Part shown: piece after piece, positions 5,001-41,779 of the stretch
Layout of the letters: each line of letters starts with the position of its first letter
Numbering within the stretch: the first letter of the stretch is position 1
Position numbers and translations under genes: made by a program
The notes under the pieces: model-generated
Database searches by the model: none
What the model saw: only the letters and a program-made list of their open reading frames with translations
What the model was told of the DNA's origin: nothing
Source of the DNA: a virus
Lineage: Duplodnaviria > Caudoviricetes
DNA length: 64,000 bases
Strand: one strand, 5' to 3'
Virus record (IMG/VR): IMGVR_UViG_3300005973_000002

Positions 5001-7184
5001 CTATGCTAGGAATTCATTCAAAACTGATTCAATCTCAGTTGCATTGAAGTCGCAGTCCGTAACACCGATCGTAAGATCGGCTTCATCACGGTCCTGAACC
5101 AGGATAGCACCTCGGCCATGAACATTGAACAAGGCAAGGTCAAGCATGTTCGGCTTCGTCTCAGCCATCCTGGAGATTTCTCTCGTAATAGCAGAAACCG
5201 ATTCAAGCGAATTTTCAACTCGGTTGTAAAGAATACGATTCCCCACATAGAGGTCTACAAAGACAATTTCATTAGTGTGCAAGTCTACAATCATTGGAAG
5301 ACTGTATGCGGCACGACCATTCAAGTTGAAAGCATTTTCAACCGTCTTGATATCAAAAGACTTGTACTTTTTATCAACCTTTTTACGGCACATCCAACCA
5401 GCATAGCACTCGTCCATATCAGCAAAGGAATCACCAGCGAAACGATAAATTTGTGGTGCAACATAACGAACGCCCCTCTTCTTTAAGACATCAATCTTGA
5501 CGTCAATGAATTCAGATGCACCATACGGAGCAGAGGTGATATCACCGGAGTGAACAATGCCAGAATCCGAAAGACGGGTGTAGCTAACATGACCCCTAAA
5601 ATTCATATTCTCGTCAAACTGAACCAAGGAAAGGTCAAGGTCTGTACAGGTATTCTTTTGCTTCCACCAAATGAAAAGACGAAGAACTTTTGAATCGTCG
5701 AACTTAAGACGAGTTCCTCGACCAACAGTCAAGAAAGAATCAGAAGCCTTGCGCTGTTGAAGCGGCACAACAAAGCTCTTCAAAATCGGGTCAACCCAAA
5801 CCTTCTTATCGGCCCAGCTTTCCTTTTCCTGTGCAATCTTCTTTTTAATTGCATCAGCCATGATAGCACCAGCAGCTACACCAGTGCGGTCAAGCTTTGG
5901 AAGCTCGTTCTTGAAGATCTTAATTTTGCCCTTTTTATTGATAACAGTACGATAATCGCAGTCATCAACTGTCCAGAAATAACGCTCCAAAACAAGAAGG
6001 GTTTTGAGTGGGACACGCTCTGCAACCTGCTCAAAAGCAGTTAAAACTTCGCCCTCACCACCATGAGCCGAAGCTCGACGAAGAACTGCGTGAAGTCGTC
6101 GAGCGAACTCACCCGGACGCTGCTTGAGCATCTCAAGATCATAAGAACCCGCAGACATAAGCATTTCGATTGTGTTGTTCCACGTGGCAAGCTTTTTCTC
6201 GCTGATTAGAGCGAAACCAGCAACCGCTGTCTTGTATTTGCCAATGTATTCACCAAAGTGAAGACCACGACCAATTGCGATCCAGAGACCACGATAAGTC
6301 TGCATATCCGTTGCCAAGCCTGGGAATTTATCCAAGGTTGCCATGATCAAACGTCGTTGCCTACGAGAAAATTTTGGAAACTTAATCTTTTCAGAAAGCG
6401 AAATGTCGCTATCTGTAAGTGCAGCAAAAAGACGCAAAAGATCTGTCGGGGCAGACGCAAGATTTAGCGCAGCCTCATAGTCCCCCTTGCTCCAGAAATA
6501 CTTCTGGACGTACGCCTTCGTTTCCTTGAAGGAAATTTGGTCACCGGGAATGTAATCTGCGCCATAAAGGTCAAGCAGAGTTTCAATATCTTCCCTGATG
6601 GTTTCTTTGATGGAAGACTTTGCTGTCAAAATATCGTTTAGATACTTCTGCCCAATTTCCCAAGCCTCATGTTCCGTAACAAAACGAAGCTTTGAAAGTG
6701 ACTTGGCCGTGTCTTCTTCACGGGCCTTTTGGTTATCAATTCCCTTGAGAAAGAGACCAAGATCTTGAAATTGAGTAATTGGGTCAACACCGAACTCATT
6801 GAGATCAAAAAGCCATTCAGGTATAATTACGCCCGAATCAAGCGTTTGACCGTTGGTAAACAATCCCAATACATTTCCCATAAGGCCATAAAACCTCTTT
6901 GAGAAATGCTCAAGTTCCGAAGGAACCTTGTTGGGAAAACCGGAAAAGAGCGGTACGTAATCTACATGACCAGCTTTTAACTTCTTAAGTGAGTTGATAA
7001 TCTTTGAATGGTTATCAAGAACAGTGTCAGCATACTTGTGCGTATCAATTGGTTCATAACCAAGAGAAGCCAGGCCGGAAAGGAAAATAAGCTTTTTTGC
7101 TGGAGTGGCACTCGTGCCATCCGGCACAACTAAAATACGCTTTTGACGGAGTAGTACGTCTGCCAATTTTTTGGAATATGTCAT
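5001..7184 (-). CDS. Large TerD-domain stress-response-type protein
   Basis: C-terminal DLDLS...HSGDITSAPYGASEFIDV resembles TerD. Start reset to ATG 7184 because the track ORF extends through two tRNA genes. Confidence 0.7.
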   Translation of the reverse strand: MTYSKKLADVLLRQKRILVVPDGTSATPAKKLIFLSGLASLGYEPIDTHKYADTVLDNHSKIINSLKKLKAGHVDYVPLFSGFPNKVPSELEHFSKRFYGLMGNVLGLFTNGQTLDSGVIIPEWLFDLNEFGVDPITQFQDLGLFLKGIDNQKAREEDTAKSLSKLRFVTEHEAWEIGQKYLNDILTAKSSIKETIREDIETLLDLYGADYIPGDQISFKETKAYVQKYFWSKGDYEAALNLASAPTDLLRLFAALTDSDISLSEKIKFPKFSRRQRRLIMATLDKFPGLATDMQTYRGLWIAIGRGLHFGEYIGKYKTAVAGFALISEKKLATWNNTIEMLMSAGSYDLEMLKQRPGEFARRLHAVLRRASAHGGEGEVLTAFEQVAERVPLKTLLVLERYFWTVDDCDYRTVINKKGKIKIFKNELPKLDRTGVAAGAIMADAIKKKIAQEKESWADKKVWVDPILKSFVVPLQQRKASDSFLTVGRGTRLKFDDSKVLRLFIWWKQKNTCTDLDLSLVQFDENMNFRGHVSYTRLSDSGIVHSGDITSAPYGASEFIDVKIDVLKKRGVRYVAPQIYRFAGDSFADMDECYAGWMCRKKVDKKYKSFDIKTVENAFNLNGRAAYSLPMIVDLHTNEIVFVDLYVGNRILYNRVENSLESVSAITREISRMAETKPNMLDLALFNVHGRGAILVQDRDEADLTIGVTDCDFNATEIESVLNEFLA

Positions 7185-7204
7185 TGTTTCCCTAATAATA
7201 TTAG

Positions 7205-7278
7205 TGTGATCGGGGAGAATTGAACTCCCATTTCCCGAGTCACAGTCGGGCGCCTTAAACCATTGAGACCACGACCAC
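7205..7278 (-). tRNA. tRNA-His(GUG), G-1 opposite A73
   Basis: CCCGA-CTGTGAC-TCGGG anticodon arm; followed by CTAA. Confidence 0.85.
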
Positions 7279-7290
7279 CACAAAATTTGA

Positions 7291-7367
7291 AGACGAGGTA
7301 GGGAATCGAACCCTAATAACATGCGGTTTTGCAGACCGCCGGCAGCAAACCCAGCTACAACCTCGTC
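7291..7367 (-). tRNA. tRNA-Cys(GCA)
   Basis: GCGGT-CTGCAAA-ACCGC; U73. Confidence 0.88.
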
Positions 7368-21332: not shown

Positions 21333-21518
21333 ATAGTGGGCTTCAACTCTTATCTTTCGACAGCAAATGTTTTCTGTGCCATTCTACGCAGCCACGGTAA
21401 TAAGATAAACTTTGAAACCCAATGAAGTCCCTAACTTTACACGTGTCGTCAACTGCCAAATGACTTCAATTTACAGCGTTCTTTGGCACGTATAAAGCAC
21501 AAGATTTCTCTTGTTGAG

Positions 21519-22669: not shown

Positions 22670-22820
22670 AATGATTTAAATAGTTTCAATCTCTAAATTT
22701 CGTCGCTCGGGAAGGACTTCAACCTTCAGGCCCCTGAAAAGGGATTTGTTCCACTGACCTCCAGTGACGACGGAGTTGCACCGTCTACCCGCCCTGTTTC
22801 TCAGGGCGACAAAGATTTAG

Positions 22821-28118: not shown

Positions 28119-28314
28119 AAAAAACTTGCAACCGTCAAGCCATGCCCCCAGGGGGACCGCCAGACTGCCTCTCTGCCAAGAGGGAACTTGATGGTGGCAG
28201 CCATCTTGTTTCGTTGCTTGAATTTGCATCGTCTCTCCGACGTGTCAAGTCTAGTGCTCGGGAGTCCTTCAAAGTTTGAAGGGTCCTTTGCTGGGACGTA
28301 CCGACTTTCGAACC

Positions 28315-28390
28315 TGGCGGGACCGACGAGATTTGAACTCGCACCCTCTCCCGTGACAGGGGAGCGCACTGCCAATTATGCTACGGCCCC
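28315..28390 (-). tRNA. tRNA-Asp(GUC)
   Basis: CTGTCAC loop, G73, CCA. Confidence 0.92.
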
Positions 28391-28393
28391 AAA

Positions 28394-28512
28394 ACATGAC
28401 CTATAACAGATGATCAGTCTGTCAGGTGGTTGCCTATGGCAACTCTTACCATTTACATGACCTATAATCAATCGATCTCATTGATCAGGTAGATGTTCTC
28501 CATCTTTTACCA
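28394..28512 (-). repeat. Two tandem 58-nt copies of a covarying two-hairpin motif
   Basis: Copies at 28394-28451 and 28455-28512 share TGGTAARA...ACCTG...TATAGGTCATGT; stems differ in sequence but keep pairing. Confidence 0.75.
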
Positions 28513-28517
28513 GTTAG

Positions 28518-28592
28518 TCAGGATGGCGGGACTCGAACCCACATGATCCCGGCTCCAAACCGGGTGACTCAAACCAATTAGCCTACATCCTG
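28518..28592 (-). tRNA. tRNA-Pro(UGG)
   Basis: TTTGGAG loop. Confidence 0.9.
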
Positions 28593-28705
28593 TTGAAATT
28601 TCCCATTCCATTACCCATTGGACTTGAAGTGTCACGACTTGGCATGAACATTAAGGACTTGTAACCAACTTGCCGCTTCTGATATTCGGGGACACCTGGG
28701 AAATT

Positions 28706-28781: not shown

Positions 28782-28865
28782 AAAAACCTGCCCAGATTAG
28801 GACTGCACTATCCAATCCAGCTCCATAAAGGTTTTTAGCGGTTTATTGACCGACAGGTATTTTAG

Positions 28866-29115: not shown

Positions 29116-29193
29116 AAAAGCGTATTCAGTTGTCAAAGAGAACTATACTTTTGTAGCCTCAGGAAGCGCTACAAACAAATAAAAAGATTTTAG

Positions 29194-29317: not shown

Positions 29318-29346
29318 AGTGTAGTACGTTATAAATAGGATGTCAA
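29318..29346 (-). promoter_or_regulatory. Sigma70-type promoter heading the tRNA array
   Basis: TTGACA, 17-nt spacer, TACACT, about 50 nt upstream of the first tRNA. Confidence 0.7.
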
Positions 29347-29446: not shown

Positions 29447-29761
29447 TCAGGCTTCAGTTTTTGTCAATTGACGTTGAGCATGCTCTCCCGAGCCTTCAAT
29501 TGCTGTTCCAGAACCCGATTCGCTTTCAGCATCAATCCATTCAATTACAGTCTTTCCACCATGTCCATGAATGTGGATCATTTCCACTGTACTATGGTAA
29601 ATACCAATACTCCGAGTATCAGTAAGCCAACTAATGACACACTGTCCGTCGGAGAACTTGATACCTTCGGCTACATAACCAGTGCCCGAAACACCACTCT
29701 CATCTTCATTACGCTTGAGGCGAAATCGACGAAGTTCTACTTTCCTTTTAGGTTCAGCCAT
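29447..29761 (-). CDS. Phage-type hypothetical protein
   Basis: RFRLKRNEDESGVSGTGYVAEG..FSDG..HGHGGKT. Confidence 0.65.
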   Translation of the reverse strand: MAEPKRKVELRRFRLKRNEDESGVSGTGYVAEGIKFSDGQCVISWLTDTRSIGIYHSTVEMIHIHGHGGKTVIEWIDAESESGSGTAIEGSGEHAQRQLTKTEA

Positions 29762-39029: not shown

Positions 39030-40205
39030 TCACTTTACAAGTTTTGTAAACAGCTCAGTCTCACGTCGTTCAATTTCTTGTCCGATTTCTCGTCCCTTTA
39101 AACCCTGAGCCATCAACTCTTGTCCACTCACGGATGGTTCGTATTTAATAAATGCATCTACCAAATTCATGTCCGGCTCACCACTAAGTTGAGCAAATTC
39201 CTTCAAGTCCTCAGGAGAAAGTCGTGTCGGCTTCCACAATTTTTTCAAATGATAAGCATTCTCGGGAGAAAGGTTTTGAAAAAGATTAAGAAAAGCAATT
39301 TGCCTAGTTTCAACTACACTGTATTTTAAGTTGTTTAACTTTTGAGACAAAACTTTAGGATTGTTATCTCGTGTAAGAAGAGCAAGTTGCACTGGGATGT
39401 TCTTTGTTTCTTCATACCACGTGTTTAGCTTTAACCCAGGTAAAATCTTTTCCCATAAATTGAAAGAGTCATAAAGACGATGTAAGGCCCTGACGGATTG
39501 GGCACTCTTAATGCTTTTCAAGAATTCATCTCTGATTCTTTCAGGCGACACACCCTCTAAGGAATTATTTGCCCTAATGGCGTCTTCGGTCGGTTTATCA
39601 AGCCCAGCACCCATACGAGCTGCAAATCTAATAGCTCGCAAAATTCTCAGTCTGTCCTCATCAAATCTTTCTGAGGGATCTCCAACAGCTCTAACCACAC
39701 CTTTTTCTAGATCTTCAAGACCGCCTACCAAGTCCACAACTTCTTGACTGTCGATGTCATAAAAAAGTGCGTTAATTGTAAGATCACGACGTTTCACATC
39801 ATTTTCAATAGTAGTAAACTCAACTGCATCGGGTCGTCGACCCACCAAAGACTTAAATTCTCGATATTCTTCTGGAAAAAGTTGTGCGGCTTTATTTTTC
39901 CAATTAGCCGACTCTGTCAACTTGTTTGTGGTTGTTGGGGTAAATGTGATAAAGATACCATCTGTAGGATCACCCTCCACGACACTGATACTATCAGTGC
40001 TGTACTCATCGAAAATTTTATAGTGTTCATCCCACCAATCTTCTTCGGGTGTACCTGCTTCATATCGACATCCGAGTGTATGAGTTTCAATGAACCAGCC
40101 ATTTACAATAACAGTATCACCACAAGTTCTTGCAGTCTTCAATTTAGCCAGAAGGTCATTTCCAGCCTTTTGAACGGTTGCAGGTAAATCTTCATACTTG
40201 GTCAT
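39030..40205 (-). CDS. cca: CCA-adding enzyme (tRNA nucleotidyltransferase), C-terminal piece
   Basis: DVKRRDLTINALFY, RFDEDRLRILRAIRF, VSPERIRDE; probable start ATG 40205 with GGAG 8 nt upstream. Confidence 0.85.
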   Translation of the reverse strand: MTKYEDLPATVQKAGNDLLAKLKTARTCGDTVIVNGWFIETHTLGCRYEAGTPEEDWWDEHYKIFDEYSTDSISVVEGDPTDGIFITFTPTTTNKLTESANWKNKAAQLFPEEYREFKSLVGRRPDAVEFTTIENDVKRRDLTINALFYDIDSQEVVDLVGGLEDLEKGVVRAVGDPSERFDEDRLRILRAIRFAARMGAGLDKPTEDAIRANNSLEGVSPERIRDEFLKSIKSAQSVRALHRLYDSFNLWEKILPGLKLNTWYEETKNIPVQLALLTRDNNPKVLSQKLNNLKYSVVETRQIAFLNLFQNLSPENAYHLKKLWKPTRLSPEDLKEFAQLSGEPDMNLVDAFIKYEPSVSGQELMAQGLKGREIGQEIERRETELFTKLVK

Positions 40206-40920
40206 CAACATATCTCCACATAAAACCACCAGCTTGTTTCCTGTACTTTTTGTTTCTGGCAGCACAGCTAATGTTTCTAATTCCCAAGTCTTTTTGAGCT
40301 TTATCAACACTTTCCCAAATTTGGATCATTTCACCGTCTAAAGTCATTTGCATTACTTTTTTCTTGTTCCAAGCTGATTTTCCTCTACGAGCTTTAGAAA
40401 TCTTCTGCTTTTGTGCTTCTGTACAAGGTTTTCCAAGTCTTCTGGTGTTACCTATAAGTGACTTGGAAATATTTTTCTTGTGTACAGAAGTTAATTTTCG
40501 ACCCTTATGCTGTCTAGCAACTTGTGCTATTTTTTGCTTCGCCTTCTCACTGTGCTTATAACCGTGAGATCCAACCTCTCCTCCAGAAGTGACATTTGTT
40601 AAATCACAACCTTTGTCTTTGAAATATTGAATCCAATACCGCTCTCGTTCTGTCAACAAACTTTCTTCACATTTTTCAATGGCAATTATCCTCAGTTTGG
40701 AGAGCAATCCTTTTCTCTCCAATAATCGCAACCAATTATTCTTATGCGAGTTATTCTTGTTCCTTCGATGCTTATGCTTAGAGAGTCTAACGTTTAGCTT
40801 TGATACAGTTTTACCAACATATCTGACCTCATTAGTCATTGGGCATACGAGCGAGTAGACGCAGCCTTTTCTTCCAGTTTTCTGGCTGTTTTTCTTGGAT
40901 GAATTTAACGAAACTTTCAT
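40192..40920 (-). mobile_element. GIY-YIG homing endonuclease inserted in cca
   Basis: VYSL..RYVGKT, RLSKH, ERYWI, NUMOD-like repeats. Confidence 0.9.
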
Positions 40921-41779
40921 AATCATCTTTTAAATATGAATCTTCACGGAAAGTTGCTATTTCATATTCATTGCCCTCAGGGGTTATAACATTGATAACA
41001 CCAAATGCCTTCCCAACTTCCATTGTTTTGTACTCTGGGAATTTCCTGATTATTTCAAGAATGCGATTAGGATTAGCATCTGTGGCCACATCATAATCCT
41101 TAGGTTCTTTACCCAGCAATGCATCCCGTACTGCTCCACCTACAACGTAAAGTTGATGTCCAGCTTTTGAAAAGATTTGTGATAATCTTTGAATGTCAGC
41201 AGGTATTTTCATATTAAAGGGCTTTCGCACTGATTCAACTAAGAAATTGAAATTTTCATTTAAAATTTCATCAATAAGCCATTTAACGCTTTCGTTTTTA
41301 GCCTCAGTTTCTTGGTTGTCTTTTTTTGGCACCTGATCCAGTGGCGAAGGTTGCTTTTTCTGCAAATATTTTTTAAACTTGCGCTCCCGTTTTTTGCGAG
41401 GTACAGTGTAATGTTTTTTTAACAACTGATCAATGGTAGATTGGTACCAGCGCTTTGCCTGTCCAGCAAGTTTGTTGTCATCTACAAAATGATCAATATA
41501 AAGACGCACTCCGTGCGTATCACCGGATTGACGTGGGTCCATATCTGGATCCATTTTAAGCAAGCCTGACAACTGGTCGAGTTTCTTGGTTGGAGAGTAT
41601 CCTCCCCTGACTGATGACACGGAAAACTTAGCAAGTTTAGTCAAATCATCATGAATTTCGGGAAAATTTTTCTTCATGTGATTAACGTAATCTTGCGATA
41701 GCTCCTCACGGTGTTCGAGCATGACTTCATCAAGCACTTCCTCAATCAAATATACAAGGTCTTTCTTTTTCATGGACAT
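40832..41779 (-). CDS. cca: CCA-adding enzyme, N-terminal catalytic piece with about 180 extra N-terminal residues
   Basis: LYVVGGAVRDALLGKEPKDYDVATDA, VGKAFGV, EIATFR. Confidence 0.88.
   Translation of the reverse strand: MSMKKKDLVYLIEEVLDEVMLEHREELSQDYVNHMKKNFPEIHDDLTKLAKFSVSSVRGGYSPTKKLDQLSGLLKMDPDMDPRQSGDTHGVRLYIDHFVDDNKLAGQAKRWYQSTIDQLLKKHYTVPRKKRERKFKKYLQKKQPSPLDQVPKKDNQETEAKNESVKWLIDEILNENFNFLVESVRKPFNMKIPADIQRLSQIFSKAGHQLYVVGGAVRDALLGKEPKDYDVATDANPNRILEIIRKFPEYKTMEVGKAFGVINVITPEGNEYEIATFREDSYLKDDYESFVKFIQEKQPENWKKRLRLLARMPND

Follow-up and report, generated by a model that had tools for sequence, protein, structure and literature searches.

A tandem RNA element supported by covariation in the tRNA-Pro/tRNA-Asp spacer of a huge-phage tRNA cluster

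The 126-nt spacer between the tRNA-Pro(UGG) and tRNA-Asp(GUC) genes of the 64-kb window (the whole stretch of phage DNA analyzed here) is almost wholly occupied by two similar units of 58 nt, which raises the question of what kind of RNA these units encode and what it does within a tRNA cluster. The features, in the order of transcription, are as follows.

28517..28592, minus strand: tRNA-Pro(UGG), with no encoded CCA, the upstream neighbor of the units
28455..28512, minus strand: unit 1, subtype A, 58 nt, with the same ends as monomers found elsewhere
28394..28451, minus strand: unit 2, subtype B, 58 nt, with the same overall fold as unit 1
28315..28390, minus strand: tRNA-Asp(GUC), the constant downstream neighbor, whose 5' end is a predicted RNase P cleavage site

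The two copies, the shared words TGGTAARA, ACCT-G...T-AT-AGGT and CATGT, and the four stems reported in a preliminary description all lie on the minus strand where it had placed them, and its unit boundaries are borne out by single monomers with the same ends in two other phages. Global alignment of the two units gave a score of 34, compared with a maximum of 28 in 5000 shuffles. There is no further copy of the motif in the 64-kb window. The spacer sequence is identical in four other assemblies of the same phage, and the tandem arrangement is therefore not an assembly artifact.

Exact-pattern scans of viral and metagenome contigs gave only chance matches and re-found one homologue (L238); because they gave nothing new, the tRNA clusters of relatives were obtained through their flanking proteins. 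A covariance model built on the window copies alone, as the preliminary description had proposed, recovered a monomer that fills the tRNA-Trp/tRNA-Asp spacer of another phage (L238:7982-8045; 56 bits, E 4e-9). A second monomer ends a tRNA-Pro/tRNA-Asp spacer in a third phage (L384:11727-11790; 50 bits, E 2e-9), so that the family consists of four sequences from three phages. A BLAST search of the spacer against INPHARED had no match, and model searches of whole IMG/VR records returned nothing new. L383 and L391 were rejected as homologues, being weak matches without the fold, of which L391 overlaps open reading frames.

In all three phages the element lies a few nucleotides 5' of the same type of tRNA-Asp(GUC), whereas its upstream neighbor is variously tRNA-Pro, tRNA-Trp or a 23S rRNA mimic. 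The distance from the end of the upstream tRNA is about 5-7 nt in two of the phages and about 165 nt in L384. The earlier placing of the motif in the 3' trailer of tRNA-Pro describes an incidental association. Two distinct lineages of tRNA-Asp(GUC) occur in the clade (positions 28315-28390 of the window and its relatives), and several phages have both.

The two window units share only 57% identity, but unit 1 has 75% identity with the monomer of L238 and unit 2 has 80% with that of L384. Judged by these identities, the copies are two old subtypes joined head to tail and not a recent duplication, because each is closer to a monomer in another phage than to its partner. For the same reason, the covariation is not the product of a recent duplication within this genome. 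The element is absent at this slot in six related clusters for which the stretch was fetched (L062, L065, L075, L086, L087 and L377), including the two closest, and the slot there contains other folded RNAs or a short linker.

That selection has acted on RNA structure is supported by the alignment of the two units with their two homologues, in which 10 of 19 base pairs are changed on both sides, a number equaled in none of 500 shuffles; slid controls collapsed. Seventy-three of the 74 cells pair. In the window pair alone, all five variable base pairs were changed on both sides, and one covarying pair, A-U versus G-C below the bulged A, lies beyond those previously listed. Given no structure, RNAalifold recovered 14 of the 19 pairs, which make up both long stems, and neither P1 nor the pair under the bulged A. 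The folding energy of the units is unremarkable (z -1.1 to -2.0), so the evidence for the fold is covariation and not stability. Read on the tRNA strand, the four sequences contain six G-U cells and no A-C cells, which fixes the strand and favors an RNA; the plus-strand reading was rejected, as its G-U pairs would turn into A-C.

The four sequences support a three-way junction. P1, the weakest part of the model, consists of UG/CA plus one covarying pair, and energy models do not predict it. R-UAA makes up the junction strand. P2 combines an R-Y pair and a bulged base with a hairpin of 4-5 bp, and P3 combines four pairs and an invariant G-U, which carries an AU bulge, with a hairpin whose loop is 7 nt long. 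Unit 1 contains P1 as UG/CA, the junction GUAA, an A-U pair with the bulged A, a 4-bp hairpin with the loop GAGAA (28496-28500), an ACCU/AGGU helix, the G-U pair with the AU bulge, and a hairpin whose 7-nt loop lies at 28473-28479. Unit 2 has a G-C pair with the bulged A, a 5-bp hairpin with the loop CAUAG (28434-28438), and the 7-nt loop CUGAUCA (28411-28417), which contains a 6-nt palindrome.

The 7-nt loop of subtype B is unchanged while its stem covaries. Palindromes of 6 nt, different in sequence, occur in the 7-nt loops of subtype B and L238 (a chance of about 0.03 each, calculated post hoc), the unit 1 loop has a 4-nt palindrome only, and the two window loops could form five pairs with each other. 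This self-complementarity hints at loop-loop dimerization, which we offer purely as a hypothesis. The region where the units meet can alternatively fold as CAU/AUG with a GUAA tetraloop, which would swap the pairing between units; the folding energies of independent (-18.4 kcal/mol) and swapped (-16.8 kcal/mol) forms of the tandem are too close to separate.

The window contains 49 tRNA genes, and 17 of these encode CCA. Contigs that encode a neighboring protein reach 461 kb, which marks the phage carrying this cluster as a huge one (~461 kb). The region at the head of the cluster contains the following features.

29447..29761, minus strand: gene of the Acb5 family (anti-CBASS nuclease), immediately upstream of the cluster, with a precomputed PF26761 match and no match in another Pfam search; given as context only
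29318..29346, minus strand: sigma-70-like promoter TTGACA-17-TACACT heading the tRNA cluster, with similar sites in the same place in four relatives
29116..29192, minus strand: hairpin and boxA-like word after the first tRNA, kept in nine of nine related clusters

The hairpin and its adjoining word, which we take to be a boxA, are probably an rrn-type antitermination signal, and there is no terminator-like site between the promoter and the spacer. Acb5 proteins cleave cGAMP (10.1101/2025.07.12.664507). HNH endonuclease genes are also found within the cluster. The window has a CCA-enzyme-family gene (39030-41779, minus strand) that is divided into two open reading frames with a GIY-YIG gene between them; relatives have a single open reading frame of ~550 aa, which suggests an intron or intein-like insertion.

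The explanation that fits best, which we hold tentatively and rate a little short of an even chance from the sequence data, is that the element is a small structured cargo RNA, freed by tRNA-end processing, which captures a partner in trans as a decoy or sponge would. It would be co-transcribed from the cluster promoter, and processing of the tRNA-Pro 3' end together with RNase P cleavage at tRNA-Asp +1 would release an RNA of ~127 nt. In favor of this reading are the covariation and the G-U cells on the tRNA strand, the cluster promoter, the boxA-like word and the lack of a terminator-like site between promoter and spacer, the CCA-enzyme-family gene, the small number of tRNAs with an encoded CCA, the loop palindromes, and the absence of the element from this slot in six related clusters. 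Each unit would then present two stacked hairpin arms with a closing helix of 2-3 bp; covariation demonstrates the arms, and a single covarying pair underlies the closing helix. More speculatively, the unpaired bases that never vary (the junction UAA and the AU bulge over G-U) might be the binding surface, and the target of such a decoy would most likely be a host protein and less likely a small molecule. Subtypes A and B joined head to tail could provide two sites or a covalent dimer, relatives carrying one unit or none. In both the window and L238 the element takes up essentially all of its spacer, leaving nothing else there for it to regulate or protect. In L384 it shares its spacer with a mimic of the 23S rRNA L11 site, and this mimic recurs in other phage loci. 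The same tRNA-Asp type follows the element in all three phages, which could mean a role in cis and so counts against action in trans. Also weighing against this reading are the small number of sequences (four, from three phages), the lack of an rRNA counterpart, a P1 that energy models do not predict, and a unit 1 loop whose palindrome is only 4 nt.

Only tRNAs reached threshold when the whole window was compared with Rfam, and the statement that the motif was unrecognized stands, in that no Rfam family matches it at threshold. The best match below threshold was to the DUF1874 motif.

28424..28463, minus strand: region of the unit junction, matching DUF1874 (RF02953) positions 20-57 below threshold

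This match scored 27.7 bits against a gathering cut-off of 42, with an E value of 6e-4 over the 126-nt spacer. One arm of the L384 monomer matched DUF1874 positions 31-53 weakly (14.4 bits), and the subtype A monomer of L238 had no match to the model. Our comparison, made with the model consensus and the published description (PMC5737381), points to a partly shared core arm made up of GG-Y-CA, GGUAAG, a bulge, a 5-bp stem with a C-UAG loop, and a stacked CC/GG helix. Subtype B has the GGUAAG, bulge, stem and C-UAG loop, but the CAUCCA part is present only as CA(U), across the unit junction. Unlike DUF1874, the monomers have a permuted strand order and a G-U with an AU bulge in place of a continuous helix, and they lack the outer three-way junction, the Shine-Dalgarno word and a position upstream of open reading frames. 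DUF1874 RNAs sit 5' of open reading frames in consecutive intergenic regions, and no ligand is known for them (PMC5737381). Scans with DUF1874-consensus patterns yielded no true member, nor did a family search of 151 genomes from one phylum. Given the score below threshold and the missing outer junction, Shine-Dalgarno word and open reading frame context, the motif is not a DUF1874 member; it may at most be a circular permutation of the DUF1874 core, which we consider possible and somewhat more doubtful than not.

The closest known kind appears to be the orphan small RNAs of the T4 tRNA region, and by its sequence features the motif is a new small family of that kind. Like RNAC and RNAD, it is a non-tRNA RNA inside a phage tRNA cluster, encoded within the tRNA operon and on the same strand as the tRNAs, with conserved structure and no open reading frame. 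It differs from the T4 RNAs in being a smaller modular unit with two subtypes, tandem in the window, in a swappable slot. Phage RNA decoys such as the pseudo-ToxI repeats and the RNA anti-CRISPRs are short repeated structured RNAs; the motif resembles these and may likewise act in trans, but its stems diverge while its junction is kept, and no type III antitoxin or CRISPR-repeat family in Rfam matched it. Several other identities were tried and rejected. A CsrA sponge is contradicted by an ANGGA word in one unit only, a T-box-like RNA by UGAU for UGGU in L238 and by arms that look too short to span a tRNA, and matches to C/D snoRNAs were at chance. A mimic of 16S, 23S or 5S rRNA, linear or permuted, was rejected because the model has no match in rRNA genes and local scores were at chance, with the exception of one 9-nt 5S word that is absent from L238.

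The preliminary description had also suggested a ribozyme or a processing signal. A required processing signal is disfavored by the six related clusters without the element, from which tRNA-Asp maturation is probably independent of it. A cis-acting leader of tRNA-Asp, adjusting the access of RNase P or the folding of the tRNA and possibly working through codon-anticodon pairing of a loop GAU with the GUC anticodon, is unlikely. It would account for the immediate proximity to the 5' end of one tRNA-Asp type in 3/3 phages and for GAU at positions 3-5 of the 7-nt loop in three of the four sequences, but the L238 loop has UAU, close tRNA-Asp orthologues (81-89% identical, in L075 and L086) are preceded by unrelated RNAs, a second, distal copy would be of little use in cis, and the linkage to tRNA-Asp could be simple descent. 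We are more doubtful of a new class of self-cleaving ribozyme that trims tRNA precursors, for which the small size, the conserved junction bases and the few nucleotides separating it from tRNA ends could be cited. Theta ribozymes are a precedent, as small structured RNAs beside phage tRNA genes, although they are tied to the 3' end of an upstream tRNA and the element is tied to the 5' end of a downstream one (PMC10879173). Against a ribozyme, the spacing from the upstream tRNA end varies, reaching about 165 nt in L384, and most relatives manage without the element. A known ribozyme class finds no support in Rfam, in which no ribozyme family, including hammerhead, twister, twister-sister, pistol, hatchet and hairpin, matched the spacer at E<10 or the homologues at E<5, and hammerhead core words are lacking. 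The nested double pseudoknot and catalytic J4/2 cytosine of theta/HDV-like ribozymes are not apparent, the covariation supports nested helices only, and no HDV-type family in Rfam matched. A 3'-end cap in the style of MALAT1, shielding the RNA upstream of the RNase P cut, would explain why the element invariably stops a few nucleotides short of tRNA +1 and why in L384 it terminates a longer spacer with the 23S mimic. We regard it as highly unlikely, since the window and L238 have nothing upstream to protect and U-rich triple-helix elements are lacking.

The resemblance to DUF1874 permits a further reading, in which a circularly permuted core would be an aptamer that soaks up a small molecule, for instance a cyclic-nucleotide immune signal. 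In its favor, the DUF1874 protein is a ring nuclease and the Acb5 gene adjoins the cluster. The best Rfam match lies over the unit junction with a weak return on the L384 arm, and the GGUAAG, bulged base, 5-bp stem with C-UAG loop and stacked GG/CC helix are held in common. The score is nonetheless below threshold, subtype A has no match, the flanking helices, downstream open reading frame and Shine-Dalgarno word are absent, and DUF1874 itself has no known ligand (PMC5737381); we find this reading as doubtful as a new ribozyme. In its fullest form, the permuted core would have moved from a cis leader to a tRNA-excised sponge that binds a cyclic-nucleotide signal beside the Acb5 gene, and the tandem would be a loop-locked dimer with two sites; this is the least probable proposal considered here. 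A functionless or selfish structured insert, harmlessly removed by tRNA processing, would be consistent with the patchy distribution and the HNH endonuclease genes in the cluster. It is as improbable as a 3' cap, given that compensatory change is strict and the unpaired bases are invariant among sequences only 50-57% alike, that no mobility hallmarks are visible, and that the 64-kb window has no other copy. An excised RNA acting in trans remains our preferred, if tentative, explanation.

The motif is a covariation-supported family, very small at four sequences, that is new to Rfam and to the literature searched, although it may be listed among the viral candidate RNAs of Fremin 2023. Being ~60 nt long and occurring naturally in two subtypes and as a tandem, it lends itself to easy assays of cleavage, binding and dimerization. 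It might also offer a way into the orphan DUF1874 motif, and were the permuted DUF1874 sponge correct, it would be an RNA-only anti-defense sponge that revealed the ligand of DUF1874 as well. More generally, the tRNA operon of this huge-phage clade could be an array of swappable small RNAs, excisable by tRNA processing.

Five other spacers of the window (28119-28314, 28782-28864, 28593-28705, 21333-21517 and 22670-22819, all minus strand) contain non-coding elements that are kept in relatives, sometimes repositioned, and that have no Rfam match at threshold; the tRNA cluster has the look of a series of interchangeable small RNAs. One motif, CTTGAC followed after 1-3 nt by TCGGAGAGACG (~28231-28255, minus strand), recurs in the spacers of relatives and was found in 108 viral contig stretches, many without nearby tRNAs. 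Copies of the 23S rRNA L11-binding region occur at L384:11570-11720, L183:13247-13285, L144 about 3136 and L230 about 4468, with a long insert in those of L384 and L183. The tRNA spacers of other phages contain a conserved pseudoknot-like RNA (L256:4217-4369, L253:4450-4596 and L255:4249-4409) that has no Rfam match. Some of its words recall the 16S 530 loop, and its CAU/AUG-GUAAAA stretch is like the motif core in a different topology. An RNase P protein-family gene (PF00825) lies inside the tRNA cluster of a close relative (L065:17417-17704). The window also encodes a large protein without a Pfam match (5001-7322, minus strand), which by eye we presume to be like the Ter/TROVE-associated proteins. 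Finally, a 45-nt hairpin before the other tRNA-Asp type (L086:14150-14194) resembles the motif minus its P3 arm, and may be a minimal relative or a chance likeness.
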